Shown in pieces: positions 25,012 through 46,548 of a stretch of 64,000 bases of DNA. This DNA comes from Candidatus Reconcilbacillus cellulovorans (lineage in GTDB: Bacteria > Bacillota > Bacilli > Paenibacillales > Reconciliibacillaceae). The stretch spans positions 1,035-65,034 of the forward strand of contig MOXJ01000012.1 in the NCBI GenBank assembly GCA_002507565.1. Reading direction: 5' to 3'. Both the position numbers and the translations under genes were made by a program. The notes under the pieces were generated by a model. The model did not search any database. It had not been told where the DNA came from and worked only from the letters and a program-made list of their open reading frames with translations. Positions within the stretch are counted from its first letter, which is position 1; each line of letters begins with the position of its first letter.

Positions 25012-25023
25012 TTTCGAGATTTG

Positions 25024-25062
25024 AAAAAAAGCAACCATGGTGGAAAACTCCACGACGGTTGC
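25024..25062 (-). terminator. Rho-independent terminator after rpsO (rpsO-pnp intergenic)
   Basis: The minus strand reads GCAACC-GTC-GTGGA-GTTT-TCCAC-CAT-GGTTGC followed by TTTTTTT, 20 nt after the rpsO TAA. Confidence 0.8.
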
Positions 25063-25081
25063 CGTTCGACGGGTGTCGCCG

Positions 25082-25351: not shown

Positions 25352-25451
25352 CGTGCGTCACCTCCCGTTGCGTGACACCTCCCGCCCAGTCGCCGCCGGT
25401 GACAAACGGACGACCGCGCGGGGGAACGAGTCGTTGCCTTTTAACAGTCAA

Positions 25452-25480
25452 ATTGTATCACATCTTCGGACAAAGCGCAA
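25452..25480 (-). promoter_or_regulatory. Putative sigma-A promoter of rpsO (-35 TTGCGC, 17 nt, TGa-TACAAT extended -10)
   Basis: On the minus strand TTGCGC is at 25480-25475 and TACAAT at 25457-25452, preceded by TGA. It lies about 100 nt upstream of the rpsO start. Confidence 0.55.
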
Positions 25481-25506: not shown

Positions 25507-26673
25507 TCATCCGATTGTCTTCGCGCTCTCTTTGCCATTTGGTTTCCAGATGCGATAACGGCCGCTCAACATCAGAAGCGCGAACATATACAGACAATTG
25601 TCGTAATAGCGGCGCGGTCCTTTGCGAAGCGGCGTGTTCCAGAACCGTTCGACGAATTTGTAGGCATGGGGACCCTTTGCGGCAAGCGATGCCGCGGCAT
25701 TCGTCGCCAGCAGTCCGACGGGATGAAGCGCCTTTTCCTCATATGGCGTCCCGTCGATCGCGTACCGGCGATAATCTTCCGGAGGCTTGTCCGCGAAAAA
25801 AGCTTGAACGCGGTCGGCGATTTCCCGTAGCCTGTCGTCCGCGCGGAACCATTCCCAATCAAGCGCAATGTTGGCGACCACCCGGTACGAATCGCTGAAA
25901 AAATCGCCATGCCCCCGCACGGGATTCGGTGTCCCGTCGAAAAAGGCATATTCCGGCGCAAGCCCGGTCTCAGGGTGGCATGCTTTCTTTAGATACATTC
26001 TACTGGCTTCCGCCGCCTCTTTCCAGAACGGACGGTCTTCGGGATCCGTCCATAATGAAAATAATTCATAAAAATGAGGTAAATGGTAAGAAGGATCGGT
26101 AAAATCGCATTCCGGAATGAACTTGATCAATCGGTTGGCCGGATCCCACATCGGATAGCCGGGGCCGGATTCGCCCTGATGCAGGCATGTCCGCAGCAGG
26201 CGACGCGCCTGAACGCCGTAGTCGAACGGCGGTTCACCGTCGCCCCACCGATGCGAAGCAAACAGAAGCGCCATGGCGAAATATTCCTCGCCGTCCGGCG
26301 CCGGGCCGTTTGCGCGTCGCGTTCCGTCGGGGTTGCACGACCAGGCGAAATACCCCGCGTGAACGCCGTCCTTCATGAACATATACGTCATCGCCCATTT
26401 CCAGAGCCGGTCGAACACGTCCTTGCGGTCGAATTGTACGGCCATCATCATACCGTAAGACATTCCCTCGGTGCGCACGTCCAGGTTGCCCGTGTCCAGG
26501 ATAAAGCCCATGTCGTCGCCCACGGGATAATAAATGCGCGTGTCGTCGTCGCCTTCGAACAAGCTGCGCCACGTCTCCTGCAGTCTGTCGTCGATCTGTT
26601 GTTCATCGATGCCGCACTCCGCCAGCACGTTACGGTACTGCCCGGTGAAAAAAGCTCCCTGCGATTGCTCCAC
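25507..26673 (-). CDS. Glycoside hydrolase family 8, reducing-end xylose-releasing exo-oligoxylanase (Rex)-like; cytoplasmic
   Basis: The ORF track extends this gene to 26799. GTG at 26673 follows a GAAAGGAGA SD and gives EQSQGAFFTGQYRNVL. The sequence ...YYPVGDDMGFILDTGNLDVRTEGMSYGMMMAVQFDRKDVFDRLWKW...GYFAWSC.PDG...GPAPDGEEYFA... is colinear with the Bacillus halodurans Rex (BH2105) sequence as I recall it. There is no signal peptide. Confidence 0.85.
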   Translation of the reverse strand: MEQSQGAFFTGQYRNVLAECGIDEQQIDDRLQETWRSLFEGDDDTRIYYPVGDDMGFILDTGNLDVRTEGMSYGMMMAVQFDRKDVFDRLWKWAMTYMFMKDGVHAGYFAWSCNPDGTRRANGPAPDGEEYFAMALLFASHRWGDGEPPFDYGVQARRLLRTCLHQGESGPGYPMWDPANRLIKFIPECDFTDPSYHLPHFYELFSLWTDPEDRPFWKEAAEASRMYLKKACHPETGLAPEYAFFDGTPNPVRGHGDFFSDSYRVVANIALDWEWFRADDRLREIADRVQAFFADKPPEDYRRYAIDGTPYEEKALHPVGLLATNAAASLAAKGPHAYKFVERFWNTPLRKGPRRYYDNCLYMFALLMLSGRYRIWKPNGKESAKTIG

Positions 26674-26802
26674 GTTCGATATCTCCTTTCGCACCGTTTT
26701 TCGCGAGGGTGCCCGATCCTTCGCCGTACCCCGTGCGAACATTGTGCGCCGCAACGATGCCGGGGAAAACCCGAGAAAATTAAGATCGTACCCCCGCAAA
26801 CT

Positions 26803-27999
26803 TTAAGGAGCGTACAGGGCGGCCAGTAAAATACCGAGGCACTCCTGATAAATTTGTTCAAGCTGGGAAAGCGGAAGCGGATTGACGCCCATTCCGGCTT
26901 CGATCGTGAAGCCGGGACGACGCCATTCCATGATGAACCAATCCTTGTATCCGGCATAACTTTCGATATACCGAATAGGCGTATATCCGCTGACGCGCGC
27001 GAACTCGACGGCGAGCCGCTCCGACTCCGGCGGTTCGAAGCCCATGAAGCCCCAATAGATGACGCGGCCTTGCGTATGAAATGCCAGCACGCGGTGAAAA
27101 TCGCTTTCCCGCGTCAATTGTGCCATGGCGACCGCTTCCGGTTCGGTCAGCGGCGCGGTGCCCGGGTAATCGCGCGGCGCAGGCCCTTTGGCGGGCGAAC
27201 GCGCGACTTCACGCTCCCAGAAGGCCGGAAACTGGTCGTTCAGATCGACGCCGCGAATGTTGGCTTTCCAGCGAGAAAAATCCATACTGCCGCCGTTGAT
27301 GGCGACGACCCGGTCGCGATAGGGCTGCTCTCGCGGAGGGCCGTGAATGACGAGATCGACGCCGTCGGGGTTCACCATCGGCACCGCCGACAACGTCGCT
27401 ATGCGGTAATAAGGCGCCATGACGAGTCCCCGGACGGCCGTACCGTTCGTCAGGGCAAGCGCGTACTCGTTTAAAAAACGGACGAGCACCGGCGTCGTGA
27501 TCCATTCGTTGGCGTGAAACGCGCCGTTTACATGAACGCGTCTTCCTCCCCGGCCGATCCGCAATTCTTCGATCGGCTTGCCCAGGACGGATCGGCCGAT
27601 CGCGCGCCGGCGGACAAACGGATAGACTTCCGTCAGGCGGTCGAGATCCTCGGCGAGCGCGGCGGAATCATAGGCCCGCATCGGCCGGACGACCGGCCGC
27701 GTGACGCGAACGGGTACGCGGACGATTTGCCCGACGGCGAGCGTATTCGGCCGAATGCCGGGATTCAGCGCGAACAAGGCGTTCAGCGCCGTACCGTACC
27801 TCTGCGCAATCAACCACAGGCTTTCTCCCGCAACCACGCGGTGTTCAGCAACGGTATAACCGGGAATGCTGACCGTTGATCCGGGCAAAAGGCGCGACGG
27901 ATCGACGCCGGGATTCGAATCGAGAATCAGCTCGAGCGGAACGGCGAACAAGCGGCTGTACAGCCAAAACGAATCGCCGGGGCGGACGGTGACGCGCAT
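26803..27999 (-). CDS. LysM-LysM-M14 peptidase (gamma-D-glutamyl-meso-diaminopimelate peptidase I-like)
   Basis: 398 aa. It has two N-terminal LysM repeats (VRPGDSFWLYSRLF...; VVAGESLWLIAQRYG...) followed by an M14 zinc-carboxypeptidase domain (VHVNGAFHANEWITTPVL, ...VLAFHTQG). Confidence 0.82.
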   Translation of the reverse strand: MRVTVRPGDSFWLYSRLFAVPLELILDSNPGVDPSRLLPGSTVSIPGYTVAEHRVVAGESLWLIAQRYGTALNALFALNPGIRPNTLAVGQIVRVPVRVTRPVVRPMRAYDSAALAEDLDRLTEVYPFVRRRAIGRSVLGKPIEELRIGRGGRRVHVNGAFHANEWITTPVLVRFLNEYALALTNGTAVRGLVMAPYYRIATLSAVPMVNPDGVDLVIHGPPREQPYRDRVVAINGGSMDFSRWKANIRGVDLNDQFPAFWEREVARSPAKGPAPRDYPGTAPLTEPEAVAMAQLTRESDFHRVLAFHTQGRVIYWGFMGFEPPESERLAVEFARVSGYTPIRYIESYAGYKDWFIMEWRRPGFTIEAGMGVNPLPLSQLEQIYQECLGILLAALYAP

Positions 28000-28093
28000 G
28001 CGGCTTGCCTCCCGTTTTCAGTCGGTCTTCTTTTTTCATTCTTATGGGAAGAAGCCGGCGCGGATGACCGCCTGACACATCATATCCGACACG

Positions 28094-28768
28094 TCATATC
28101 CAAAGGCTGACGTACCACGTTAAAAGCGCCTCGCCCCAGACGAACGCGGCCAACGCGCCCAAGGAGAGAAATGGGCCAAACGGCAAAAATATAGATCGAT
28201 CGCCGCCCGACGCGGCAATCCGGAACAGACCGTACAGACTGCCGGCCGCCGAGGCGAAAAACAAGCACAAGAACGCGAGCTTAAGTCCCAAAACGGAACC
28301 GAGCGCAAACATCATCTTCACGTCGCCGCCGCCGACGCCTTGCCGGCGTCCGAAACGCTCAAACGCCAGCCCGACCGCAAACAACGCCGCCGCTCCGGCC
28401 AACGCGCCGAGAGCGTAATGCCAAAACGGCTCGGGGCGAACGAACAGCCGCAACGCCGCAAACAGCGCCGCAAAAGGAAACACGACGACGTTCAAAATCA
28501 GCCGGCACCTTAGATCCGTCGCCGTACAAACAGCGCAAAAAACGAGAAGTGCCGCTCCGACGACGCGTTCTTCCGTCTCCGATACGGCTGTGAAAATCGC
28601 CCAAAACCAAAAGGCCGTCACCAAACCGACGGCCGTTGTCCAAACCGCTCCGCTTTTTTCTTCATTGCAGTCGTCGCGGAACCGCAAAAGCCGCCTTGCG
28701 ATTTCGTCCGCAGCCGCGCCGATCGCAAAGCCGCCCGCGACGAGGGCCGAACCGACGAAAACCTCCAT
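28094..28768 (-). CDS. pilD: Prepilin peptidase (A24 family), short form without the N-terminal methyltransferase/tetra-Cys region
   Basis: 224 aa, polytopic. The two catalytic Asp motifs are present (CTATDLRCRLI and GGGDVKMMFALG). The first cytoplasmic loop is only about 20 aa and contains a single Cys. Confidence 0.88.
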   Translation of the reverse strand: MEVFVGSALVAGGFAIGAAADEIARRLLRFRDDCNEEKSGAVWTTAVGLVTAFWFWAIFTAVSETEERVVGAALLVFCAVCTATDLRCRLILNVVVFPFAALFAALRLFVRPEPFWHYALGALAGAAALFAVGLAFERFGRRQGVGGGDVKMMFALGSVLGLKLAFLCLFFASAAGSLYGLFRIAASGGDRSIFLPFGPFLSLGALAAFVWGEALLTWYVSLWI

Positions 28769-28792
28769 CCCGCCTTCGCCCTCCGACGCCGC

Positions 28793-29869
28793 TCAGCTGT
28801 CGATCTTCCGTCCGAGCGACTCGCGGGACGAAGAGATCGAAAGCGATTGCGACAGCGCCAAACTTTTTTCCAGCCATGTGTTCAGCTGACGGAAGGTGTC
28901 GATGGGAAGCGAAATCGTTTGTTGGCTGTCGCCGATCGACATCTGAATGATCAGCTCGTTTTCACTTTCGGTGCAGATCGCCCGATAATGTACGGTATTG
29001 CCCTTCCACTCTTCCTGCCATTGGCACATATAACTGCTCGTAAATTGCTTCAACTTTTCATTCCTCCTAAACAGGTTGATAATTTTATTTTCCGTCGCTG
29101 GAATCTGCTCGGACGACTCGGTTTTCGACTCGGTTTGCGTGCTTAGGGTCGCTAGCGGCTCAGGCGCGGTTTCCGGTTCGGCCGCAACGGCCGGTTCCCC
29201 AAAGCCTTCTAGCTCGGGAAGAGCCGGCAATTCCAATTCCTCCTGCTCGCGCCGTTCTATCGTTTCGTCCAACTCGACATCGCTTTCGGCAACTGCCGTC
29301 AACGATTCGTCCAACACTCCGGCATACGCCGCGGGATTCCGTTCGTCGCCTACGCCGCCGGGATCGTCGTTCGTCCCGTCCGCGCCGGCAACACCAACAC
29401 TGGCTTCCGCCGAGGACGAATCAGCGGCTGCGGCCGACGCCGGCCGCGGCAGTTCGATCACGTTGTCGAACTTTTTCATTTCCGCCTGCCGGCGTTTTTC
29501 CAGGGCAGGGATTGCAGTCGTGCGAATTACCTCGTTGACGCGGTCGGGCTTGAAAGGTTTCATCAAATAACCGTTGGCGCCCGCTTTCATGGCGTCGGAA
29601 ATTTGCTCTTGCTGGCTCATCGCCGAACAAACGAGCACGACGGCATGCGGGTCGATCATGCGGATTTCGCGGATCGCCTCGATGCCGTCCATTTCGGGCA
29701 TGGTGATGTCCATAATGATGACGTCGGGTTTCAGTTCCCGGAACAGAGTGACGGCCTGCCTCCCGTTGTCCGCCTCGCCGACGACCTCGTGCCCGGCCTG
29801 GACCAGGATGTCCGTCAACATCTTGCGCATAAACTTGGTGTCGTCGACGACCAACATCCGATACGGCAT
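28793..29869 (-). CDS. CheY-like receiver fused to an acidic linker and an unrecognised C-terminal domain of about 110 aa
   Basis: The ORF track extends this gene to 30034. ATG at 29869 lies 9 nt after AAAGGGG. ATG at 29878 forms an ATGA overlap with the upstream stop codon and is an alternative start. The receiver MPYRMLVVDDTKFMRKMLTDIL...IIMDITMPEMDGIEAIREI...CSAMSQQ...YLMKPF closely resembles B. subtilis CheY. I recognise no motif in the remaining 240 aa. Confidence 0.85.
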   Translation of the reverse strand: MPYRMLVVDDTKFMRKMLTDILVQAGHEVVGEADNGRQAVTLFRELKPDVIIMDITMPEMDGIEAIREIRMIDPHAVVLVCSAMSQQEQISDAMKAGANGYLMKPFKPDRVNEVIRTTAIPALEKRRQAEMKKFDNVIELPRPASAAAADSSSAEASVGVAGADGTNDDPGGVGDERNPAAYAGVLDESLTAVAESDVELDETIERREQEELELPALPELEGFGEPAVAAEPETAPEPLATLSTQTESKTESSEQIPATENKIINLFRRNEKLKQFTSSYMCQWQEEWKGNTVHYRAICTESENELIIQMSIGDSQQTISLPIDTFRQLNTWLEKSLALSQSLSISSSRESLGRKIDS

Positions 29870-29874
29870 CGTCG

Positions 29875-31683
29875 TCATCCCCTTTCTACTTTGGCGACAA
29901 AAATGTTCAGACCTTCCGTTATCGGGATTCCCGTCGGCGGCTGCTCGTACAGCAGGGCGTCGTGATAAATTTGCAGGCGCGACGTTTCGAACGGCAACAC
30001 CTCCTGATCCGGCTGGATGTTGGGTCCCGGCCACGAAGGTCCGGCATATTCGATCGGAGGTTCTCCTCCCATACTCGGCGGCTCGCCGCGCACCGCGTGC
30101 AGTTCGACGGCCGTACCGCCGGGGTTTTCGCCGTGAATCCCTCCGGAAATAAACAGTTTCGACACGACGCCGTACATCTTCACCTGGCGCTTGGAGAATA
30201 GAAAAGCACGGATCTCCGCGTCCGCGTTCCGTTCGTTGGTGTTGTCGCCGAGCACGACGTTACTGGAGGCGACCAACACAAGTGGAATCGGCGTTCCACC
30301 GCTCAGGCCGTTGATCGAGCGCATTCGCTTCAAATCGACATCCCCGTCGACGTAAACCGTGCCGCGCAACCGGATATCGCCGAAAATCGTCAAGTTGCCT
30401 TTAATATACATGCTTCCGTCCGAAAGTTCAAAACCGTCGTTGAAAAACACGTCGCCCTCAATGTATGCGAACTTGTCGGGCGGAAGCACGATCTTTCCCG
30501 AAAGGTCGGCGGCGATTTGCTGGGGCGCGGTCAATTGGACGAAAAGCGATCCGTTCTGCAGTCGAAGCTCCGGCACCCGAGCTCCACCCGTTCGCTGTAA
30601 CCGCAGCGAACCTTCTTTGATAAGAAGATCGGCGCTCGAAGAAGAACTCGTCCCAACCGTCAGCACGCTGCCGTCGATCACAAGTGATGTATTGGAAAAA
30701 CGGACGCTGCCGGAAAGCCAGTCGGTATCGGATGAGACCACATGTTCGAATTCGCCCTCGGGCCAATCCAGATCAAAAGATTGTCCTTCCCGCATCGCAA
30801 AAACGGATGACTTGCGCGCGACATAATCTGCCGGACGCAATTCGGGGTCGTCGGATTCGAGCGATAAATCTTCAAACGGAAACATTTGCGACGAAAAATA
30901 GCCAACGTCGAAATCACGGGACGAATGCGTCGTGCGCGAATACGGACCCGACGTCTCCGACTTAAAAAAGCGATCGCCTCCGGGCGTCCGGCCGTCGACG
31001 CGGATAAACCCCCGCAACGCCGGAAAATCCGATATAAAGCCGTATAACGAACCCGGCGCGCTGATGACCTGCGCCTCGTTGGCAACGCGCAGGTCGCCGT
31101 CGCGTACGAGCACGTCGCCGACGATATACGGCGAGCCGTTCAGCGACAAGTCGCCGCGCGCGCTGACGGGATACCGGAAAACGGGGTGAACCGTTCCGAC
31201 GTAGACCGTCATCGTCTTGGCCACGGATACCGACGGTCGTCGATCGAACGATCCGATCGACCGAACGACGATCTTGCGGACGTAGGGAACGTCGGGATCG
31301 GTCTCCGGACGGCCCGCCGGACTCGACGTTTCGCGGTTTTCCAGCACTTCGAGACGATACTTTCCACTCTGGACGGCGTATTCTTTCCCGTCCCAGGCGT
31401 CGACGGCGTCCAATCTTGAACTTGCCAGCGCGACCGCGTCGCGGTAAACCAGACCGGCGTTGTTGATGTCGTCCGCGACTTTGCGGATTTGGGCCAAGAC
31501 GCGGTCGAGCCCGCTTTGAGCAAGCATTTCCGCCCGAACCGCCGCCTCCGTCGACGCCGTCCGGACGGCGCTTTCTCGAACGACGCCAAGCAAAACAAGT
31601 CCGACGATGCTGATGACCGCCAGGGCAAACAGCGCCACGGCCAACGCCGCACCCGACTCCGAAACTGTCGAACGCCGCGGCAC
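29875..31683 (-). CDS. Large PilX_N/GspK-like minor pilin (602 aa) with a predicted beta-helix-like body
   Basis: GTG start behind a GGGGGGAA SD. The N-terminus SESGAALAVALFALAVISIVGLVLLGVV resembles the PilX N-terminal/GspK hydrophobic segment (no Glu5). The C-terminal part has repetitive GD-x-hydrophobic segments (IEGDVFFNDG, IKGNLTIFGDIRLRGTVYVDGDVDL). Confidence 0.65.
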   Translation of the reverse strand: MPRRSTVSESGAALAVALFALAVISIVGLVLLGVVRESAVRTASTEAAVRAEMLAQSGLDRVLAQIRKVADDINNAGLVYRDAVALASSRLDAVDAWDGKEYAVQSGKYRLEVLENRETSSPAGRPETDPDVPYVRKIVVRSIGSFDRRPSVSVAKTMTVYVGTVHPVFRYPVSARGDLSLNGSPYIVGDVLVRDGDLRVANEAQVISAPGSLYGFISDFPALRGFIRVDGRTPGGDRFFKSETSGPYSRTTHSSRDFDVGYFSSQMFPFEDLSLESDDPELRPADYVARKSSVFAMREGQSFDLDWPEGEFEHVVSSDTDWLSGSVRFSNTSLVIDGSVLTVGTSSSSSADLLIKEGSLRLQRTGGARVPELRLQNGSLFVQLTAPQQIAADLSGKIVLPPDKFAYIEGDVFFNDGFELSDGSMYIKGNLTIFGDIRLRGTVYVDGDVDLKRMRSINGLSGGTPIPLVLVASSNVVLGDNTNERNADAEIRAFLFSKRQVKMYGVVSKLFISGGIHGENPGGTAVELHAVRGEPPSMGGEPPIEYAGPSWPGPNIQPDQEVLPFETSRLQIYHDALLYEQPPTGIPITEGLNIFVAKVERG

Positions 31684-31686
31684 GGT

Positions 31687-32202
31687 TCATTCCCCCCGTC
31701 CTACCGGTATGCGCGAACGGATGTTCAGCACGGGCGACGTCGCGCCGACCGGCCGATACTCCAGATCGATCACCACATGATGATGACCTTCGGCGATCAG
31801 TTTCCCCGAGGAAATTTCAAAAGCAGGTGCAAGCGCGAACACTTTCGGCGGACCGGACGGCATAATCGGATCGACGCGGATTTGCCCGCCGTCGAATCGC
31901 ATTTCATACCAGGCGATATACTGTTTCGGATCCGCAGACGGCTTGACGAACCGAATCGACCGCTGCGTCGTATCGGCCTGTTCGACGTAAATCGCGTCGC
32001 CCAGCTCGGTCACGATGCGGCTGAAAAGCAGGTCGCCCTGGTTGCGCATGGTCGTTTCGATCGTAACGCGCTTGTAGATGGACATCGCCATTAAGACGAA
32101 CGAGTAGATGATCGTCGTCACCATCGTCATGATCATGAGCGCGACCAACGTTTCAAGCAACGTCAGGCCCCGTTCGTCTTTCCGCCGACCGATTCGCCGC
32201 AT
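31687..32202 (-). CDS. Minor pilin with prepilin-type N-terminal cleavage/methylation motif (GspJ/PilW-like)
   Basis: 171 aa. The N-terminus is MRRIGRRKDERG|LTLLETLVALMIMTMV, with Gly at -1, Glu at +5 and a hydrophobic helix. Confidence 0.82.
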   Translation of the reverse strand: MRRIGRRKDERGLTLLETLVALMIMTMVTTIIYSFVLMAMSIYKRVTIETTMRNQGDLLFSRIVTELGDAIYVEQADTTQRSIRFVKPSADPKQYIAWYEMRFDGGQIRVDPIMPSGPPKVFALAPAFEISSGKLIAEGHHHVVIDLEYRPVGATSPVLNIRSRIPVGRGE

Positions 32203-32209
32203 GTTCCGC

Positions 32210-32677
32210 TCATCCTTTCGCGATCATCGCGTCGACATAGGTGGACAGGCGCGGCACGGCGGCGGGAGAAACGGCGCCGGCCTCCGCCCAGAAGACGCGG
32301 ACGGTCATCGCGATCAGCCGTTCGTCCGCGTCCGGCCGCAACACGACCTGATAGCGGTAAGTCGTGCCGTTGATCACCGTATCGTTCAAAAGTCCGGCCA
32401 ACGGGCCGGCAGAAGCGGCGGTGAACGTGGCGGTGCCGGCCGACGCGACATAGGCGCGAAGCGGGTCGTACTCAGCCGGTTTTTTGAACGCCTCGCGGAG
32501 TTCCGCCGCCTTGTACCTCGCCAGATGAACCGCGATCGTCCGACGGTTCTGTTCTGCCGATCGTTCCATTGCCGACAAGATGTAAGCGGCCATCGTCACC
32601 GTCACCACGCTCATGATGATAACGGCGATCAGGATTTCGACCAGGGTCAAGCCGGATTCGCCGCGAAGCCGGCGCAT
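32210..32677 (-). CDS. Minor pilin with prepilin-type N-terminal cleavage/methylation motif (GspI/PilV-like)
   Basis: 155 aa behind a strong GAAAGGAGGGAGA SD. The N-terminus is MRRLRGESG|LTLVEILIAVIIMSVV. Confidence 0.82.
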   Translation of the reverse strand: MRRLRGESGLTLVEILIAVIIMSVVTVTMAAYILSAMERSAEQNRRTIAVHLARYKAAELREAFKKPAEYDPLRAYVASAGTATFTAASAGPLAGLLNDTVINGTTYRYQVVLRPDADERLIAMTVRVFWAEAGAVSPAAVPRLSTYVDAMIAKG

Positions 32678-32717
32678 CGTTTCTCCCTCCTTTCGCGACG
32701 GAAACCGTCATAACGCT

Positions 32718-35096: not shown

Positions 35097-35131
35097 GAAC
35101 GTTCACCCCTTCTTTCCGCTAAGTTTTCGGT

Positions 35132-36358: not shown

Positions 36359-36359
36359 G

Positions 36360-37433: not shown

Positions 37434-37448
37434 GCATGCATCGCCCTT

Positions 37449-38108
37449 TCACGGCTCGGGTCCGACGCGAATCGGCATCGGATCGGGGAAAAACGTTTTC
37501 AGGTCAGGCGCATAATACGCGCTCAGCGTCAATTGACAGGTATACAATCGTTTGTCGGCATTCAACTTGACCGGCGGAGCGGCGTCCGCCTGCAGCTCGA
37601 CCCGGTCGATCCGGACGAGCCGCCTCATGGTCTGGATTTCCTCCAGCAACCGCCTGATTTGCGTCCATTCGCCTTTAACCGAGGTTTTCAGCTGAAGCTG
37701 TGCAACCGTTGGAGCCGCCGACGGCCGACCGTTCTCCTGTCCGCCCGTCTGGGAAGCAGGCGTATCGGAACCGGTCGAGACGGGCTGGAAATTGTAGTCC
37801 GAAAACTGAAGACGCGTCACCGACTCCAGCATGCGCAGATCCTGAACGAGCCGGTCGCGGTAAGGCTCTTCCGGAACGGCCTCACGCACCTTTTCCAGTT
37901 CAACGCGGACTCTGCCCGCCGACTGCTGTGCAACATTCGGACGGGCGGTCAGCAGTTGAAATTCTTTGCGTTTTTGTTCCAACTGCGCATTCAGATCGGA
38001 CCGCCGTTCTTGCAGCGGCATGATCCACCATACGTAAACGCCTGCCGCCAGAAGCGCGACGATGACAAACAACCCCCAACGCAAAAGCGGCGTATTCGGC
38101 ACGCTCAC
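37449..38108 (-). CDS. pilO: Type IV pilus assembly protein PilO-like
   Basis: 219 aa with a GTG start in a GTGA overlap with pilN. It has one N-terminal transmembrane segment followed by a coiled coil (LQERRSDLNAQLEQKRKEFQLL). It sits after pilM-pilN. Confidence 0.72.
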   Translation of the reverse strand: MSVPNTPLLRWGLFVIVALLAAGVYVWWIMPLQERRSDLNAQLEQKRKEFQLLTARPNVAQQSAGRVRVELEKVREAVPEEPYRDRLVQDLRMLESVTRLQFSDYNFQPVSTGSDTPASQTGGQENGRPSAAPTVAQLQLKTSVKGEWTQIRRLLEEIQTMRRLVRIDRVELQADAAPPVKLNADKRLYTCQLTLSAYYAPDLKTFFPDPMPIRVGPEP

Positions 38109-38791
38109 GTCCGGCTCGCCCCCCCTTGCGGCGACGCCGTCGGCGTGTTCGCTCCCGTCTGCGGCGCCGGAGTCGGGTTCGGGCTTATACTCGGACTCGG
38201 CGACGGCTGGATAATGCGGATGCGGATCGTCGCTTGTACGACGGGCAGCCAGTCGCCTGCCGGAGAAGCCGGCGCCAACGATGGAGTCGGAAGCGGCACG
38301 CGGGAGACGCCCGTGATCTCTACACCGGCAAACGTCGGTTCCTGCCGCAGCGCTTCCACTCCGCGGACAAGCGCGTCCGCCGTCGCGAAGCCGACCGTCA
38401 CCGTCATTTCTTTGCCGTCAAAGTAAACAAGGCCGTTTAAATTCGAGTAAGCGGGCAGTTTGGCGATTAGCCGATCGAGAACGTCGGTCGCGGACGGACC
38501 ACTGCCGCGAAGGACGGACGGTAATGCAAGCCATTCGGCGACCGTGGTTTCCGATATGGTGTTGTTCCGCGCCTTCAACAACTCGTCGATGCGCGCCTGC
38601 ATCGCATTGAGCTCCGCCTGCGTCGTCCGGACGTCCCGATCGGCGTCGTACCAAAGCCAGCCGGTCACGCCGAACGCGACGACGGCGAACAGCGCCAGAT
38701 ACACGACCCACGGGATCGTCGGCGACGAGGGGGTTCGCGTCAAATCCTGCAACAGATTGATTTCGATGGAACGAAATTTGACGGGTTCCAT
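38105..38791 (-). CDS. pilN: Type IV pilus assembly protein PilN-like
   Basis: 228 aa. The conserved cytoplasmic INLL motif (RSIEINLLQD) is followed by a transmembrane segment and a coiled coil. The C-terminal tail is Pro/Ser-rich. Confidence 0.75.
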   Translation of the reverse strand: MEPVKFRSIEINLLQDLTRTPSSPTIPWVVYLALFAVVAFGVTGWLWYDADRDVRTTQAELNAMQARIDELLKARNNTISETTVAEWLALPSVLRGSGPSATDVLDRLIAKLPAYSNLNGLVYFDGKEMTVTVGFATADALVRGVEALRQEPTFAGVEITGVSRVPLPTPSLAPASPAGDWLPVVQATIRIRIIQPSPSPSISPNPTPAPQTGANTPTASPQGGASRT

Positions 38792-38809
38792 GTCGTGCCC
38801 CTTTCGGCG

Positions 38810-39781
38810 TTACGCCCCTTTCAGCGCCAGACCGATCGCCACCGCATACGGGTCGTACTCCGCGGTGTTTTCGAAAAAAAGATACAACACCCGCTCCATC
38901 GGCAGCGGACGGATCAGCTCGCGGAGCGACTCGTCGAGAAACTCCGGAAGCCGCTTGACTTCCGCATTGTCGAACGCCATGTAAATCCGCCGAATTTCCC
39001 CGTGGTCGGAGGACATCGAATAGCGATAGTAGTTCATCAGCCGGCTCAATTCGATGGACAACGACCGGCCGAACAAAGCCAACGGGTCGCCGCCCTGCTC
39101 CAGCCAGATGTTCCGCGAAGAGCGGAACGAACGGAACAAAACGGGGACGCTGTCGGCGAAAATGCTTACGTCGACGCGCTCGGCTTCGACGTACAGCAAC
39201 ATGAACCTGTCCGGGGCTTCCTCCCCGGTGATCGCCGCGTGCCGAGCGAGCAACCTGAGCAACGCAAGCGGCACGAGATCGACGGCGACCGGCTCGAGTC
39301 CCGCAGAACGGACCGTTCGGACGAGTTCTTCTACGACATCGCGGGGCGTCGCGAAAATGAGCACTTCGTCCTTCCCAGCTTCCGCCGCGGGACCGAGCCT
39401 TACGAAGTCGAATACGGGATTTTGGAACGGCAGCGGCGTTCCCCCGTGCAGGTCGACGTCGATCAAATGCCGCAGTTCGCGGTCTTTAACCGACGGAAAC
39501 GCCGCCTTGCGAAGCGCGACGCTCGACAGCGGAACGGCGACGTTGACGCCGGTTCCGCGCAAATCCGCATCTTTGACCATCGTGCGCAACGCCTCGGCCG
39601 CCGCTTGCGCATCAGCTATGCGCCCTTCGCGCATGCACCCGTCGGGGAGCGGGGCGGAAAATCGCCGGGTGACGGCGACTCTGGAATCGGACGGACGGAT
39701 TTCGACAAGTTTCGCCTCCTGATCCGACAGCGACAGGCCGTAGGCGTACCGGCTTTTTTTCCAGCCCCAGTTGATGCGCAT
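38810..39781 (-). CDS. pilM: Type IV pilus assembly ATPase-fold protein PilM
   Basis: The ORF track extends this gene to 39991, through pilA. ATG at 39781 follows a GAGGAGG SD. The protein is an actin-like fold protein of 323 aa and is immediately followed by pilN. Confidence 0.8.
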   Translation of the reverse strand: MRINWGWKKSRYAYGLSLSDQEAKLVEIRPSDSRVAVTRRFSAPLPDGCMREGRIADAQAAAEALRTMVKDADLRGTGVNVAVPLSSVALRKAAFPSVKDRELRHLIDVDLHGGTPLPFQNPVFDFVRLGPAAEAGKDEVLIFATPRDVVEELVRTVRSAGLEPVAVDLVPLALLRLLARHAAITGEEAPDRFMLLYVEAERVDVSIFADSVPVLFRSFRSSRNIWLEQGGDPLALFGRSLSIELSRLMNYYRYSMSSDHGEIRRIYMAFDNAEVKRLPEFLDESLRELIRPLPMERVLYLFFENTAEYDPYAVAIGLALKGA

Positions 39782-39858
39782 GGCGAACCTCCTCGACGTG
39801 CGTATGGGATGACAGCGGCCGCCCCTGCCGACTGACCAACAGGCGGACCGGGCGAGCG

Positions 39859-39879
39859 GCCGAAAAAGCCGTCTTCGGC
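39859..39879 (-). terminator. Weak candidate terminator/attenuator just after pilA
   Basis: The minus strand reads GCCG-AAGA-CGGC-TTTTT, or alternatively GCCGAA-(9 nt)-TTCGGC, starting 3 nt after the pilA stop. The stem is short, so this could at best be a partial terminator. Confidence 0.3.
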
Positions 39880-39881
39880 GA

Positions 39882-40376
39882 TTACGGCGTGTTGCTCGGT
39901 GACGGCGATGTGCCGCCGCCAATCGACACTGTTTTAATTTCTTCTTCGGTTTTGTTATCAAAGTATTTGGTATTTCCACTAGCATCAACAAGCGTAATAC
40001 GATAGGTCAGACTACCATTGCTTGAATTTTGGGTAACAGTTACTTTAGTTGCTGTTGGATGGTAAGTGCTGTTGTTGGTTCCTTGCGGGTCTTTAGGCTC
40101 TTTGTCCAAATATCCCGCACTTACAATCTGTTCCAGAGTAATTGTTTGCACGTTTCCACCTGTTGTATCGGGATTAAACCCTTCCGTCGTCACTTTAAAC
40201 CGTGCACCGTCAATAATCATTTGGGCATTCGCGCGGTGCGCCTCTTTCTTCGTCTTATTGATAATCCCACCGATCGACGGAATGGCGATCGCCGCAATGA
40301 TCGCCAAGATGACGATAACCGCAAGCAATTCGATCAACGTCAAACCGCGCTGATCGCGGTACAGCCGTTTGAGCAT
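39882..40376 (-). CDS. pilA: Major type IV pilin (prepilin-type N-terminal cleavage/methylation domain)
   Basis: ATG at 40376 follows an AAAGGAGGA SD and gives MLKRLYRDQRG|LTLIELLAVIVILAIIAAIAIPS. The protein is 164 aa with no Cys and has a GGGTSPSPSNTP tail. In-frame upstream ATGs at 40454 (strong GGGAGGTGA SD) and at 40493 (ATGA overlap with pilC) are alternative starts. Confidence 0.88.
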   Translation of the reverse strand: MLKRLYRDQRGLTLIELLAVIVILAIIAAIAIPSIGGIINKTKKEAHRANAQMIIDGARFKVTTEGFNPDTTGGNVQTITLEQIVSAGYLDKEPKDPQGTNNSTYHPTATKVTVTQNSSNGSLTYRITLVDASGNTKYFDNKTEEEIKTVSIGGGTSPSPSNTP

Positions 40377-40489
40377 CGAAAATCGTCCTCCTTTTCCGTT
40401 GGATTCGTGATACTGTCGATTTCGCAACAGCCGTAACCGGCTTCGCTTGTTCATCTCGTTCACCTCCCTTCCGGTGTGTGTTTCGGGTT

Positions 40490-41701
40490 TCATCTCAAGA
40501 AATTCTCATACATCTTGAACATCGGCGACATCATCGCGGCGACGATGACGCCGACGACGGAAGCGACGACGAGCAGCAACAGCGGTTCCACCAATGCTTT
40601 CAGGCGGTCGACGCTTTGTTCCACGTCGTGTTCGTAAAAATCGGCGATTTTGGCAAGCATTTTGTCGATTTGGCCGGTTTCCTCGCCGATGACGAGCATC
40701 TGCACCACCATCGCAGGAAAAAAACCGCTTTCCGCAAGCGGCTGCGACAGCCACTTGCCCTCGCGCAACCGCTCACCGGCCAGCGCAAGAGCGCGGGTAA
40801 TCGCGGCGTCGCCGACAGCCCGGGCCGTCACCTCGAGCGCTTGCAAAATCGGCACGGCGCCGGACAGAAGCGACGACAACGTGCGGGCCATGCGCGCGAT
40901 CGCCGCTTTTTTCATGACCGGCCCGAAGATCGGCAGGCGAAAACGGACGATCCCCCACCATACCTTCCCTTTTTCCGACTTGCGGATCAACCGGAAAACG
41001 ATCCAGAGCCCGGCCGCAAGCGGTAGCACGAGCCACCATACTTTTCCCGCCAACCGGCTTGCGCCGATGACGGTTTTCGTGATCCACGGCAATTCGGCGC
41101 CTTGTTCGGCGAACAAGCTTTCGAACGTCGGCACGATGCGTACGAGCAGAAAAATGACGACGCAGATCGCAAGAACGAGAACGACGATCGGATACGTCAT
41201 CGCCGACTTGACTTTCTGGACGATCTTGTGCTCGCGCTCGTAATGGTCGGCCATTCGGTCGAGCACGTCGTCGAGCGTGCCGCCGGCCTCGCCGGAAACG
41301 ATCATATTGACGAACATGTCGGGAAAAATCGATTTATGGTCGGACATCGCCTCCGACAGCTGCCGGCCCGTCCGCACCTGATCGGCGACGTCGGCGATCG
41401 CCTGACGCAATTTGCGGTTTTTCGTCTGTTCGACAAGAACCGCAAGCGACCGGTCGATCGGAACGCCGGCGCGAATCAGGGTGGCGAACTGTCGGCTGAA
41501 CATGACGAATTCCGACAGCTTGACGGGACGGCCGATCTGAATGTCGCGGTTCCACACCGACGGGCGCGCTTCTTCGACTTTGCGCACCGACAGGTTTTGA
41601 CTGCGCAGTTCCGCGACTGCGGCGTACTTGTTGATCGCTTGAAGCGTACCTTTCACTTTTTTACCGCTTTCGGTCACCGCTTCGTAGGAAAACAACGGCA
41701 T
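40490..41701 (-). CDS. pilC: Type IV pilus platform protein PilC (GspF family)
   Basis: The ORF runs 40490-41731. ATG at 41701 follows a GGAGGAGGGG SD and gives MPLFSYEAVTESGKKVKGTLQA. Two T2SSF repeats with transmembrane segments are present. Confidence 0.9.
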   Translation of the reverse strand: MPLFSYEAVTESGKKVKGTLQAINKYAAVAELRSQNLSVRKVEEARPSVWNRDIQIGRPVKLSEFVMFSRQFATLIRAGVPIDRSLAVLVEQTKNRKLRQAIADVADQVRTGRQLSEAMSDHKSIFPDMFVNMIVSGEAGGTLDDVLDRMADHYEREHKIVQKVKSAMTYPIVVLVLAICVVIFLLVRIVPTFESLFAEQGAELPWITKTVIGASRLAGKVWWLVLPLAAGLWIVFRLIRKSEKGKVWWGIVRFRLPIFGPVMKKAAIARMARTLSSLLSGAVPILQALEVTARAVGDAAITRALALAGERLREGKWLSQPLAESGFFPAMVVQMLVIGEETGQIDKMLAKIADFYEHDVEQSVDRLKALVEPLLLLVVASVVGVIVAAMMSPMFKMYENFLR

Positions 41702-41747
41702 CGCGGCCCCTCCTCCGCCCAACGGAAGCAAAACCGTCAGGTTCGCC

Positions 41748-43466
41748 TTAATCCTCGGCGACGGCGCGCAACACCTCTTCGACGGTCGTCAACCCGAAGC
41801 GCGCCTTGGAAAGACCGTCGAACAGCATCGTCCGGTATCCCTGTTCAGACAAATAACGACGCATTTCGTCGACGGGGCGGTTCTGGGCGATCATCCGCCG
41901 CAGCGGCTCGTCCACGGTCAGCACCTCGTGAATGGCGATCCGCCCCCGATAGCCAGATTTGTTGCAGCTAGAACAGCCTTTGCCGCGCCAGACGGTCGCC
42001 GGCTGATGAACGAACGACAGGCCGACGCCGCGACCGCCGGCGGCGTTTTTCGCCTCGGCCGACACGAGGCCGTGCGCTTCGAACAACCGGATTTCTTCCG
42101 GCTTTGCGGCGACTTGCTGGCCGCACTCCCTGCATACGCGCCGGACGAGACGCTGCGCCACGACGCAGACAAGCGACGACGCGATCAGATACGGATCGAC
42201 GCCCATGTCGACCAGCCGCGTGATCGTGGCGACCGCGCTGTTGGTGTGAATCGTGCTCAGGACAAGATGGCCGGTCAGCGACGCGCGTACGGCGATTTCC
42301 GCCGTTTCGACGTCGCGGATCTCGCCGACCATGACGATGTCCGGGTCCTGGCGCAAAATCGACCGCAGCCCGGAAGCGAACGTCAATCCGATTTGCGCGT
42401 TCACCTGCACTTGCGTGATGCCGGGCAGGCGGTATTCGACCGGATCTTCGATCGTGATAATTTTCAGCTCGTCGCTGTTGATCTCGTTCAGGACCGAGTA
42501 GAGCGTCGACGTTTTCCCGCTGCCCGTCGGCCCGGAAATGAGAATGATGCCGTTCGGTTTCCGGATAACTTTCGAAAAAACGGAGAAGTTGTCTTCACTC
42601 AGTCCGAGTTCGGACAATTTTTTGATGCCGGCCGACTGATCGAGCAGACGGAGAACGATGCTTTCGCCGTAAACGGTCGGCAGCGTGGATAAACGGATGT
42701 CGATCCGCCGGCCGTCGACCTGCATCTGGATCCTGCCGTCCTGCGGCAGGCGCCGCTCGGCGATGTTGAGTTTGGCTAAAATTTTGAGGCGCGTCGTCAA
42801 GGCGTCCTGCAAATGTTTCGGCAACGCGCGCTCCGTGTAGAGCACGCCGTCGATGCGGTATTTGACGACGACCTGGCGTTCCTGCGGATCGATGTGAATG
42901 TCGCTGGCCTGGCGCTGGACGGCCGCTCGGATGATCTGGTCGACGAGCTTGACGATCGGCGAATCCGCCGCCAAGAGCGACTCGTCCTCCGCGTCGGCGT
43001 CGGCCGCACCGCCGCTTTCTTCCAGGTCGAGCCATTGCTCCAGCTTCTTCATCCCGTAATAGCGGATGATCGCCTGCTCGATGTCGCTGCGAACGGCGAT
43101 GACCGGCTGGATGCTCATGCCCGTCGCCATTCGAATTTCTTCGATCGCTTCGTAGTTCAGCGGATCCTCCATTGCTAGCTTCAGCTTGCCGTGCTTGCAG
43201 TCTACCGGGATGACGCAATGCTTTTTGGCGAGTTCTTCGGAAACCCGCTTGACCGCCTGCAGATCGGGCGGCGTTTCCTGCAAGTTCACGACAGGAAATC
43301 CGAGCTGAAACTCCAAAACTTCGACAAGCTGCCGCTCCGTGATCCAACCGCGTTCGACCAAAATGTGGCCGAGTTTTTTCTTCGTATCGGCCTGCACCCG
43401 AATCGCTTCTTCCAGTTGGCTTTCGGTGATCAGGCCGTTCATGACCAGCAACTCCCCGAGACGCAT
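41748..43466 (-). CDS. pilB: Type IV pilus extension ATPase PilB (GspE family) with an N-terminal MshEN-type domain
   Basis: The ORF runs 41748-43511, with ATG at 43466 behind AAAGGGGG. The N-terminus is RLGELLVMNGLITESQLEEAIRVQ, followed by a second copy of the motif. It has Walker A (SGPTGSGKTSTLYS), VGEIRD and a tetra-Cys cluster (CRECG...CSSCNKSGYRGR). Confidence 0.93.
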   Translation of the reverse strand: MRLGELLVMNGLITESQLEEAIRVQADTKKKLGHILVERGWITERQLVEVLEFQLGFPVVNLQETPPDLQAVKRVSEELAKKHCVIPVDCKHGKLKLAMEDPLNYEAIEEIRMATGMSIQPVIAVRSDIEQAIIRYYGMKKLEQWLDLEESGGAADADAEDESLLAADSPIVKLVDQIIRAAVQRQASDIHIDPQERQVVVKYRIDGVLYTERALPKHLQDALTTRLKILAKLNIAERRLPQDGRIQMQVDGRRIDIRLSTLPTVYGESIVLRLLDQSAGIKKLSELGLSEDNFSVFSKVIRKPNGIILISGPTGSGKTSTLYSVLNEINSDELKIITIEDPVEYRLPGITQVQVNAQIGLTFASGLRSILRQDPDIVMVGEIRDVETAEIAVRASLTGHLVLSTIHTNSAVATITRLVDMGVDPYLIASSLVCVVAQRLVRRVCRECGQQVAAKPEEIRLFEAHGLVSAEAKNAAGGRGVGLSFVHQPATVWRGKGCSSCNKSGYRGRIAIHEVLTVDEPLRRMIAQNRPVDEMRRYLSEQGYRTMLFDGLSKARFGLTTVEEVLRAVAED

Positions 43467-43560
43467 CGTCGCCGGCCCCCTTTCGCGCGCGTTCGTTTCA
43501 GGCCGCTCCAATTACACCGCTTGATCCCATTTCGCCGTAAACGGCGGGGGGATGGTGCCG

Positions 43561-44502
43561 TCATGCGCCTGACCTTTGCCGCTCCTCGCCGGACGGTGCC
43601 CTCCTGATGATTTCCGGGCGGGGTGCGTAATAGTCTTTCGAAATGATCACCTGTGCTCCGTTCTGCCGGCGCGCCAGAACCGTCACGTACAGCCCCGGCC
43701 TGCCCGCCTCGCGCACCGTCTGGCCTTCCCGTAGGGCAAAGTCGACAAGCATCAACGTCGAAGGAAGAACTTCTTCCGTCTTCACTTCGATCTCCGGAGC
43801 AGCCCATCCCGGAGACGGCAAGCCCGAGAACAAAACGACGGTCTTGTCGCCTTCCCGACGGACATCAAGCGTGACTGCAAAATCGAACGGATTATAAAAC
43901 GTCAAATTTCGTCGACCCGGCTCGAACATCGCGTCAAACCCCGGCGTAACATAAGTCGGCATTTGCGGATGCAGGTGCCGTTCGCCGGTTATCAGCCCTG
44001 CCCGGACCGCAGCCTCATAGAGAAGCGAGGCGACCTGCGACATTGCGGTTTCGGATGCCGAACCGACTGACTGCAGTTTGTCGCGGTAGACTTCCTGTAG
44101 CGAAAAGGCTTCGCCCGGCTTCAACGACATTCCTTTCAACGCATCCAACCATGCCGTCGCCTGCTGTTCGACAACAGCAAAACTCCTCGCCTCGGCGAGC
44201 GTTCTCGCCGAAGCCTGTCCGGAAGACAGCGCGGGTTCCGTCTGCCGCTGCGAACGGTCGGGCGAGGCCTGAGGCTTCGGCGCGACCGACGCCGATGCCG
44301 GTGAAGGACTTTGCGCCGTCTTCTTCACCGGCGAGACGCCCGACAACCATCCCGGCCGATCGAGCGCACCGAGCGACCAGGCGGAATATAACAAGAAAGC
44401 AGTTACCATACCCGCCAAAGCAACAATGGTAAGAACGATCCCCCCGCGCGGACGCCGGGAGACCGTCGAACGCGCATTCGTTCGCCTTCGCCTTGGTTCC
44501 AC
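43561..44502 (-). CDS. Membrane-anchored VanW-like domain protein, first gene of the pilus operon
   Basis: 313 aa with a GTG start behind GGGGGA. It has an N-terminal transmembrane segment and a Ser/Pro-rich linker. The segment SQVASLLYEAAVRAGLITGERHLHPQMPTYVTPGFDAMFEPGRRNLTFYNPFDFAVTL runs parallel to the VanW/YoaR core (CQVS.TL.NAAL.AGLEIVER..HS..V.Y...G.DATV....DLKF.N). Confidence 0.65.
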   Translation of the reverse strand: MEPRRRRTNARSTVSRRPRGGIVLTIVALAGMVTAFLLYSAWSLGALDRPGWLSGVSPVKKTAQSPSPASASVAPKPQASPDRSQRQTEPALSSGQASARTLAEARSFAVVEQQATAWLDALKGMSLKPGEAFSLQEVYRDKLQSVGSASETAMSQVASLLYEAAVRAGLITGERHLHPQMPTYVTPGFDAMFEPGRRNLTFYNPFDFAVTLDVRREGDKTVVLFSGLPSPGWAAPEIEVKTEEVLPSTLMLVDFALREGQTVREAGRPGLYVTVLARRQNGAQVIISKDYYAPRPEIIRRAPSGEERQRSGA

Positions 44503-44538
44503 CGCAACCGTTCCCCCAAAAATCGCCTTCGCAATCGT

Positions 44539-44583
44539 AGGCTAACATAAAAACGGGCAATTGAAAATAATGCATATGTATTA
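44539..44583 (-). promoter_or_regulatory. Promoter of the pilus operon with an abutting 16-bp palindromic operator (copy 1)
   Basis: The minus strand reads TAATACATATGCATTA (44583-44568), then TTTTCA (-35), then 17 nt, then TAGCCT (-10, 44544-44539). The architecture and spacing are the same as in copy 2 at 45510-45554. Confidence 0.55.
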
Positions 44584-44592
44584 AGCTGTCTG

Positions 44593-45432
44593 TCATATGC
44601 CTTTCAGAACCCGCAGAATGAATGATGCCTTTGAGTTGACATTCAATTTGGCATGGATTTTAGAAACGTAGACGCGGACCGTATTTTCACTGATGCCGAG
44701 CATCTGGCCGATGCGTCTGGTGTCGTAGTCCAACAGCCAGTAAAACGCGATCTCCCGTTCTCTGGGACTGAATTCGTACTGGTTCAGAAGCTCCATCAAC
44801 TCGGCATCCGAAAACCATGACTTGTGATTGGAATTTTTTCGTTGAAAATTCGTTTCAATGACGGACGCGATCGACGCAAGGGCGGCGTAGGCCAGCAGCG
44901 CCGAGATCCGCCGCGATGCGAACAGGGCGACCATCGCCACCGGGCGTAGGTCTTCGTTCCACACCGGCACGCAGAGCGTCATCCAATCTTTCATCACGTC
45001 GAGATAATGGTCGTTTCCCAATATGAACGCTGAACGCCGCAATTCGATCGCCGCCGAGACCGCATTCGTACCCGCGCTCGAAATCGACAGCGAGGAACCG
45101 ACGCCGATTTTTAACATCCGCTCCGATTGTTCCAGCGACTCGGAATCGCCGCTGATGTGGAGAACGACGCCGTAAGCATCCGTGATAGTCAAAAGATGGG
45201 GGAAAAAGAAACGCTGAGGGGATGAGGAGATCCATTCTTCGGCAATATCCAGCACCGAGCGGTTTTTCGCCATCAAACGGTCCAGCATTTGCCCATGAAG
45301 CCGGAAGCGGACGGAGGTGAGACTCGGAGCGATGCCCTGCTGGCGTGATTTGTCGTGCAACCACTCGATCTCTTTCGGAGAGAGGCCGACGACTTTCAAA
45401 AACTCCCTGTCTTTTGTTTTGCCCGAAAACAC
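44593..45432 (-). CDS. LuxR/GerE-family transcriptional regulator with an N-terminal sensory (GAF-like?) domain
   Basis: 279 aa with a GTG start behind an AAGGGAGG SD. The C-terminal HTH is SPREREIAFYWLLDYDTRRIGQMLGISENTVRVYVSKIHAKLNV. The N-terminal 200 aa include a GTNAVSAAIE-type segment, and I cannot assign that domain firmly. Confidence 0.82.
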   Translation of the reverse strand: MFSGKTKDREFLKVVGLSPKEIEWLHDKSRQQGIAPSLTSVRFRLHGQMLDRLMAKNRSVLDIAEEWISSSPQRFFFPHLLTITDAYGVVLHISGDSESLEQSERMLKIGVGSSLSISSAGTNAVSAAIELRRSAFILGNDHYLDVMKDWMTLCVPVWNEDLRPVAMVALFASRRISALLAYAALASIASVIETNFQRKNSNHKSWFSDAELMELLNQYEFSPREREIAFYWLLDYDTRRIGQMLGISENTVRVYVSKIHAKLNVNSKASFILRVLKGI

Positions 45433-45509
45433 ATAACAGCCTCCCTTTCCGACACATCCACCCGCTTCTGGGAATCGAAGCGTTTATCCTCCTCCTCGAC
45501 CTGAGATTC

Positions 45510-45554
45510 ATTCTAAAAGATTTTTTCAACACTTTAAATAATGCATATGGATTA
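45510..45554 (-). promoter_or_regulatory. Promoter of the LuxR-type gene with an abutting 16-bp palindromic operator (copy 2)
   Basis: The minus strand reads TAATCCATATGCATTA (45554-45539), then TTTAAA (-35), then 17 nt, then TAGAAT (-10, 45515-45510). The palindrome overlaps the ribF stop codon. Confidence 0.55.
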
Positions 45555-46535: not shown

Positions 46536-46548
46536 TCCGGTCACTCCT

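Follow-up and report, generated by a model that had tools for sequence, protein, structure and literature searches.

The subject of this analysis is a 64,000-nt window (the whole stretch of DNA analyzed, to which all position numbers refer) from “Ca. Reconcilbacillus cellulovorans,” whose genome (G000; other G-numbers denote the genomes compared with it) comprises 2.92 Mb in 114 contigs, has a GC content of 0.60, and belongs to the order Paenibacillales. Eighteen genes, all on the minus strand, occupy positions 25507-45554 between the stop codon of the riboflavin kinase gene ribF and the promoter of rpsO, the gene for ribosomal protein S15, and minus is the sole strand carrying long open reading frames (ORFs) between 25.5 and 45.5 kb. 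The block is composite: a 16-gene type IV pilus module, extending from a LuxR-type regulator gene to the prepilin peptidase gene pilD, is joined by two unrelated enzyme genes typical of the order, one for an M14 carboxypeptidase with LysM domains (M14/LysM) and one for a GH8 enzyme. The block is very probably an old, lineage-specific integration of an order-native pilus module rather than a recent foreign island.

Ancestral adjacency of ribF and rpsO and age of the insertion

A survey of the ribF-rpsO gap covered 40 relatives from the same order, representing 20 families and 29 genera, all of which possess both genes. Spacing was 100 to 250 nt in 37 of the 40; a contig ends between the two genes in G026 and in G035, and a 1.96-kb gap in G002 holds a single unrelated gene, for a cation diffusion facilitator, on the opposite strand. 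This G002 gene (L093, 483-2438) encodes a 355-aa transporter and represents an independent, unrelated insertion between ribF and rpsO in another family. G001, the only family-mate of G000, retains them with a spacing of 180 nt, and PilB is absent from it at an E value of ≤1e-30. The string infB-rbfA-nrnA-truB-ribF-rpsO-pnp was intact in all 20 relatives inspected, and rpsO directly follows ribF in metagenomic relatives whose RibF proteins are 60% and 56% identical to that of G000. Adjacency of ribF and rpsO is therefore ancestral, and the block is derived. The synteny comparison proposed in an earlier, sequence-only reading of this DNA thus identifies the block as an insertion into an ancestral, order-wide adjacency, and ORF lists and Pfam scans bear out the 18 extra codirectional genes which that reading had placed in the junction.

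The reverse polarity, in which the block arrangement is ancestral and was precisely deleted by every other lineage, would account for the clean edges of the block and for nothing else. It requires at least 19 families to have deleted the block precisely and must accommodate both a module located elsewhere in 20 of 200 genomes (see below) and the metagenomic relatives with adjacent genes at 56 to 60% RibF identity. This polarity is refuted on parsimony and retains next to no credibility.

An assembly or binning chimera at ribF and rpsO could be suspected in a 114-contig draft. In separate ENA and Logan assemblies, 13 contigs with the ribF-LuxR junction encode the exact RibF protein, and 23 contigs with the GH8-rpsO junction encode the exact S15 protein; both junctions were the same wherever the shown sequence suffices on that side, and the longest contigs reach 338 and 514 kb. 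Two diverged relatives also carry the arrangement. On one Logan contig (L130; RibF 89% identical), the order rbfA-nrnA-truB-ribF-LuxR-VanW-PilB-C-A-M-N-O-PilT is collinear with that of the window at ~92% nucleotide identity. In a second sample, ribF (84%)-LuxR-VanW lies on one contig and M14-GH8 (87%)-rpsO-pnp on another. On the basis of the independent assemblies, from different samples, and of the two diverged relatives, the block is not an assembly artifact, and a chimera is scarcely conceivable. No relative emerged when metagenomes were scanned with the LuxR-type protein.

Protein identity between L130 and window positions 36800-48900 was uneven: 99% for rbfA, 97% for nrnA, 90% for truB, 89% for ribF, 97.5% for LuxR, 82% for VanW, 99% for PilB, 90% for PilN/O, and 99.5% for PilT. 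Differing constraint or local recombination may be responsible.

Since the junctions are kept at 89% and 84% RibF identity and absent at ≤60%, the insertion was fixed at about the genus level; it postdates the separation from the G001-like and 60% lineages and predates the divergence of the 84% lineage. Close relatives carry the block, with host-like composition, which argues against the recent insertion proposed in the sequence-only reading; distant relatives (RibF identity of ≤60%, including G001) lack it, and in this respect the proposal is not contradicted.

Composition and relationships of the block

The block had been described as compositionally patchy from hand counts, and this description did not survive genome-wide comparison. 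Tetranucleotide distances of 5-kb segments across the block fall at percentiles 0 to 59 of 1,048 genome windows. The GC content of 5-kb segments is 0.586 to 0.602, compared with 0.599 for the genome, and that of 1-kb segments is 0.52 to 0.63, with a standard deviation of 0.027 versus 0.060 genome-wide. Codon usage distances of 17 of the 18 block genes lie at percentiles 5 to 68, like those of ribF, truB, infB, and pnp. Across 14 genomes, the GC content of the module tracks that of the host over a range of 0.40 to 0.59 (r = 0.86), and the G000 copy differs from the surrounding host region by 0.011.

The sole compositional outlier is pilA (GC content of 0.47; GC at third codon positions of 0.50, the 6th percentile). 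It is also the sole fast gene in the comparison with L130, at 71% identity versus 97 to 99% for PilB, PilC, PilM, and PilT, and its globular part could not be aligned to L130 by blastn. The deviation is ordinary pilin hypervariability, local to pilA, and is no evidence on the block as a whole; it points to diversifying selection or allele replacement limited to that gene.

The closest relatives of every block gene family belong to the same order, and the source names of RibF relatives are Paenibacillus and Gorillibacterium. Among the matches listed for PilB in a collection of named genomes, identity was ≤55%, with many phyla represented and mostly generic ATPase motifs shared. Combined PilB and PilC identity to other hosts of the module (53 to 65%) tracks core protein identity (61 to 68%), and G011 is the best match for both. 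In a core tree of 2,456 columns, G000 pairs only with G001, with 100% support, and has no other supported placement. Module tree distance divided by core tree distance gives 1.54 for G000, within the range of 1.5 to 2.8 of other hosts; these ratios name no donor. Transfer is suggested elsewhere: G040 and G075 are sisters on the core tree (100/100), and module proteins reject their pairing (approximately unbiased [AU] test, P = 0.0097 for a pair named after the tree had been seen). This conflict suggests at least one horizontal move of the module inside the order.

These data bear directly on the proposal that the block is a genomic island, foreign and mosaic in origin, that was acquired recently. 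Interruption of a conserved backbone, the AT-rich pilA, and the AU test result, which suggests horizontal movement somewhere in the order, are all compatible with such an island, as is the patchy presence of the module among congeners (G040 versus G010, G025, and G034; G023 versus G005). However, composition and codon usage are host-typical in 17 of the 18 genes, with pilA explained by local hypervariability, and divergence of the pilus genes matches that of the flanking core. Moreover, the same site is occupied in relatives at 89% and 84% RibF identity and lacks the block only at ≤60%, the modules of relatives reach no more than 65% identity (PilB plus PilC), and mobility genes, tRNA genes, and repeats were not found (see below). 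Host-typical composition and junctions conserved down to 84% RibF identity largely refute the recent foreign island, which we regard as very improbable.

The module at other sites in the order

The same 16 genes, in the same order from LuxR to PilD, were found by tblastn in G023, G040, G035, G157, G095, G075, G189, and G145. G003 has the same order as far as its contig reaches, and G011, G017, G006, and G007 have partial or variant copies. With PilB at an E value of ≤1e-190 as a marker, the module was detected in 20 of 200 other sampled genomes of the order, representing 12 of 54 genera. In none of these 20 genomes is it beside ribF; it comes nearest in G075 and G069, 70 kb away. Congeners vary, possessing the module, a pilB-pilT-pilC operon, or neither (e.g., G010, G025, and G034 versus G040). 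Two pilus layouts, pilB-pilT-pilC (in many genomes) and LuxR to PilD, thus occur in the order, and G017 (L089 and L127) has both.

The neighborhoods of the module differ widely. It lies between ilvB-ilvN-ilvC-leuA and leuB in G035; between trmFO-hslV-hslU-codY and flgB-flgC, together with a methyl-accepting chemotaxis protein (MCP) gene, in G075; and between CN-hydrolase-glyQS-small ORF and a LysR gene, with leuC-leuD further along, in G157, G095, and G145. In G011 it is located downstream of groES-groEL, in G023 between GH32/PfkB genes and genes for an exporter and an SRAP protein, and in G040 between genes for a histidine kinase plus response regulator and genes for a DUF4269 protein and an MCP. 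It follows lutB/lutC-like genes and an esterase gene in G003, and lies between unnamed genes and an MCP gene in G189.

Several of these sites can be inspected in G000 itself. On contig C71, codY and flgB are adjacent, collinear, and empty of the module, and the same applies to CN-hydrolase and LysR-leuCD on contig C23. On contig C64, leuA and leuB are parted solely by an oppositely oriented PAS-GGDEF-EAL gene at about 23300-25300. The leuA-leuB junction is therefore a second recurrent insertion spot, occupied by the module in G035 and by the PAS-GGDEF-EAL gene in G000. As the flanks are collinear in G000, the neighborhoods are stable and it is the position of the module that varies. The module is native to Paenibacillales, accessory, and positionally mobile, and the junction that it occupies changes from nearly every genus to the next.

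An MCP gene follows the module in three genera of one family (L158 3474-4733 in G075, L160 4435-5694 in G189, and L085 3387-5477 in G040), directly after PilD in G075 and with one further ORF between in G189 and G040; G000 has no MCP gene at this place. Together with the CheY-receiver fusion encoded in the module, these genes raise the possibility that the pilus is under chemosensory control.

The two enzyme genes of the block are never attached to other copies of the module. GH8 orthologues with 62 to 73% identity occur in 17 of the 40 relatives, located elsewhere. GH8 proteins with 70 to 79% identity occur in Paenibacillaceae, where their source names are reducing-end xylose-releasing exo-oligoxylanase; the 79% orthologue, in the metagenome-assembled genome of Paenibacillaceae bacterium ZCTH02-B3, has an oxidoreductase gene on one side and an agrB-like gene on the other. 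M14/LysM orthologues (62 to 71% identity) were found in 10 relatives, always on other contigs and at unrelated loci. On L139 and L140 (8678-9845, corresponding approximately to window positions 25507-26673), the GH8 gene of the same organism is called as two ORFs of 195 and 163 aa rather than one of 388 aa, possibly through frameshift polymorphism or gene decay.

A search for signs of mobility was negative throughout. The window contains no tRNA gene, the 18 block proteins contain no integrase, transposase, or recombinase domain according to Pfam, and direct or inverted repeats bracketing the block were not found; the sequence-only reading, which had noted no integrase, transposase, or tRNA at the edges, holds for all block proteins as regards integrases and transposases and for the entire window as regards tRNA. 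Comparison by eye of module ends from four genomes gave no common terminal sequence except the operator described below, and the 20 proteins neighboring the module copies of G023, G040, G003, and G189 include no recombinase or other mobility protein. PLSDB plasmids carry no close copy of PilB, the best match being 45% identical.

Some of these findings weigh against an old integration of an order-native module. The mechanism of movement is invisible, with no recombinase genes, flanking repeats, tRNA gene, or plasmid copy to indicate it. The module tree (3,760 columns) gives the G000 copy no supported placement and so demonstrates neither a donor nor vertical descent. In addition, family-mate G001 lacks the module, and a vacated ancestral site in the lineage is therefore not demonstrable.

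With regard to the route, the G000 copy may well have arrived by horizontal transfer from within the order. The competing route is translocation within the genome, in which the family ancestor held the module, M14, and GH8 elsewhere, rearrangements such as nested inversions brought them together, and G001 later lost the module. The fully native composition agrees with translocation, as do module divergence in line with the core and the orientation that all 18 genes share with their flanks. The union here of module, M14/LysM, and GH8, which are unlinked in relatives, would also suit rearrangement in a small, reduced genome of 2.9 Mb. However, translocation needs the extra loss in G001, no scar of a vacated site was found (at each of the three “empty” sites, G000 simply has an intact junction), and the present trees do not separate it from an old transfer within the order. 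Translocation is accordingly a tenable but doubtful explanation, and parsimony over G001 slightly favors intraorder transfer.

A broader proposition is that the LuxR-to-PilD cassette moves repeatedly within and between Paenibacillales genomes, leaving no recombinase, repeat, or tRNA signature and preferring spacers between conserved housekeeping units (ribF-rpsO, leuA-leuB, codY-flgB, and after groESL). We consider this generalization unlikely as it stands. One possible route would be promotion of DNA uptake by the retractile pilus, followed by illegitimate or microhomology recombination.

Gene content, edges, and comparison with known systems

In public contigs from this organism, the upstream backbone reads polC-rimP-nusA-L7Ae-infB-rbfA-DHH-truB-ribF and the downstream backbone rpsO-pnp-deacetylase-M16 peptidase-dUTPase-dpaA-dpaB-asd-dapA-RNase J. 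This corresponds to the order of B. subtilis, except for the dUTPase gene, which is not known to have a counterpart there. All genes described below are on the minus strand, and domain names are those of Pfam. The final gene of the upstream backbone, ribF (45552-46544), encodes a bifunctional riboflavin kinase/FAD synthetase (FAD_syn and Flavokinase; 327 aa in public assemblies) and ends with a TAA codon at 45552-45554.

The first gene of the module encodes a 279-aa LuxR/GerE-type regulator (44593-45432; GerE at residues 221-272), homologues of which also start the module in G023, G040, G157, G095, G075, G189, and G145. It is followed by genes for a VanW-domain protein (43561-44502), whose position is kept across all module copies; the assembly ATPase PilB (41748-43511; T2SSE, 457.8 bits), with an N-terminal MshEN domain; the platform protein PilC (40490-41731; two T2SSF domains, 224 bits); and the major pilin PilA (39882-40493, probably 164 aa at 39882-40376; N_methyl). 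The PilM/PilN/PilO alignment complex spans 37449-39991 and comprises PilM (38810-39991; PilM_2), a PilN candidate of 228 aa (38105-38791), which has no Pfam match and was assigned solely by position and conservation, and PilO (37449-38108; T2SSM_b/PilO). The predicted retraction ATPase PilT (36360-37433; 357 aa; T2SSE) has 67 to 75% identity to those of other module copies. Beyond it lie genes for an SLH-domain protein (35132-36358; three SLH domains), a 792-aa VWA-domain protein (32718-35096), two minor pilins of 155 aa (32210-32677) and 171 aa (31687-32202), each with N_methyl, and a 602-aa protein without a Pfam match (29875-31683); the order of the minor pilins and the 602-aa protein is conserved in all module copies. 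A CheY-receiver fusion (28793-30034, called as 358 aa at 28793-29869; Response_reg) precedes the prepilin peptidase PilD (28094-28768; Peptidase_A24), the last gene of the conserved module. The monoderm pil parts identified by Pfam include PilB, a PilC with two T2SSF domains, PilT, Peptidase_A24, and N_methyl in three proteins.

The M14 zinc carboxypeptidase gene, with two LysM domains identified by Pfam, lies at 26803-27999, and the GH8 gene (Glyco_hydro_8), of the reducing-end xylose-releasing exo-oligoxylanase type, at 25507-26799, with a probable start at 26673 that gives 388 aa. The downstream backbone begins with rpsO (25082-25351; Ribosomal_S15), whose start codon is TTG (25349-25351), compared with ATG in five relatives.

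At the right edge, positions 45539-45554 form a 16-nt palindrome, TAATCCATATGCATTA, which precedes the LuxR-type gene and takes in the ribF TAA, in agreement with the overlap described in the sequence-only reading. A second, near-identical palindrome, TAATACATATGCATTA, lies upstream of VanW-pilB at 44568-44583. Four strand-matches on the two strands compare with 0.11 expected by chance, and L130 and L131 conserve both sites along with their promoter-like spacing. In G023, an exact TAATGCATATGCATTA occupies the space from the LuxR gene to the VanW gene; in G003, whose contig shows no LuxR gene, an exact copy precedes VanW. Furthermore, a copy with one mismatch is present between the LuxR and VanW genes in G040, and one with two mismatches, TAATGCGTATGTAGTA, upstream of the LuxR gene in G023, at the equivalent position. 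Judged by this recurrence before the same genes in G023, G003, G040, L130, and L131, the palindrome belongs to the pilus module. This palindrome, TAATNCATATGNATTA, is conserved before LuxR and VanW genes across at least four families, with sites at window positions 44568-44583 and 45539-45554, L082 4040 and 5028, L083 16443, and L084 4499. This makes it a good candidate for the operator of the LuxR-type regulator, which we infer to bind it.

The left edge has the end of the GH8 TGA at 25507 and the rpsO −35 element, TTGCGC, at 25475-25480, as the earlier reading had placed them, with 26 nt in between. The rpsO promoter (TTGCGC ... TACAAT) and 5′ leader (25352-25480) align with the region upstream of rpsO in five relatives and are intact. 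Rfam at the gathering threshold returned no family anywhere in the window, which leaves the alignment as the support for the leader. No convincing intrinsic terminator was found after ribF or GH8, and some read-through into the LuxR gene and rpsO is conceivable on this account.

The features of the two edges suggest how the insertion could have been tolerated. In the genus ancestor, a probably permissive spacer between two transcription units, nusA-infB-...-truB-ribF and rpsO-pnp, would have taken up the module along with M14/LysM and GH8, with the stop codon of ribF as the exact limit on one side and the promoter of rpsO on the other. The module brings its own regulator and two putative operator-promoter units, with one palindrome before each of the two promoters. 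The ribF gene, at the end of its operon, keeps its coding and control sequence, with its stop codon now forming the first three bases of the putative operator, and rpsO retains its own promoter and presumed autoregulatory leader. With these elements preserved, the insertion may have been neutral for the flanking genes, their expression presumably unaffected, and could thereby have become fixed.

Interruption of a gene string highly conserved in Bacillota need not indicate a recent island; the insertion here is old, host adapted, and genus defining. The wider pattern may outweigh the single case, as an intact module is present in about a tenth of the sampled Paenibacillales and clean empty sites are available for comparison. 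The module offers a tidy natural system for studying how large clusters relocate or transfer without dedicated machinery, and it provides a regulatory hypothesis, namely, that the LuxR-type protein acts on two conserved palindromes.

Type IVa pil operons of Firmicutes are patchy in Bacillales, with zero or one per genome, according to a survey that included no Paenibacillus and gave nothing on chromosomal position (Imam et al. 2011, PMC3244431). Like monoderm type IVa operons, the module is secretin-less and encodes PilB, PilC, PilT, PilM, a PilN candidate, PilO, PilD, and several pilins (PMC3244431), but its gene order and accessory genes differ from those of the classical monoderm pilB-pilT-pilC layout. 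In clinical Paenibacillus thiaminolyticus (Mbale strains), an entire 12- to 14-kb pil operon is inserted that is absent from a close relative (PMC9765702). That operon shares with the present module a PilB with MshEN, PilT, PilC, PilD, pilins, and, with the PilN candidate counted, PilMNO, and has the pilB-pilT-pilC order (“type A”), is strain polymorphic, and was reported on a predicted mobile element (PMC9765702). The type A order was also found in many of the relatives compared here. In contrast, the module described here has pilT after pilO, contains LuxR, VanW, SLH, VWA, and CheY-fusion genes, is fixed in the genus, and is devoid of mobile-element features.

The block resembles classical genomic islands in being an accessory segment of patchy distribution within a conserved backbone, and differs from them in that an integrase, tRNA gene, direct repeats, and compositional deviation were not found. 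The selfish-operon model of Lawrence and Roth concerns the behavior of functional gene clusters, and the module resembles such clusters in being a complete, self-regulated cluster that stays intact as its position and presence vary between lineages. The selfish operon is a model rather than a family, and transfer and selection for coregulation are not distinguished here as the force keeping the cluster together. The presence or absence of pil operons is already known; the present case is set apart by its different layout, its lack of mobile-element traits, its unusual landing site between ribF and rpsO, and its fixation at the genus level.

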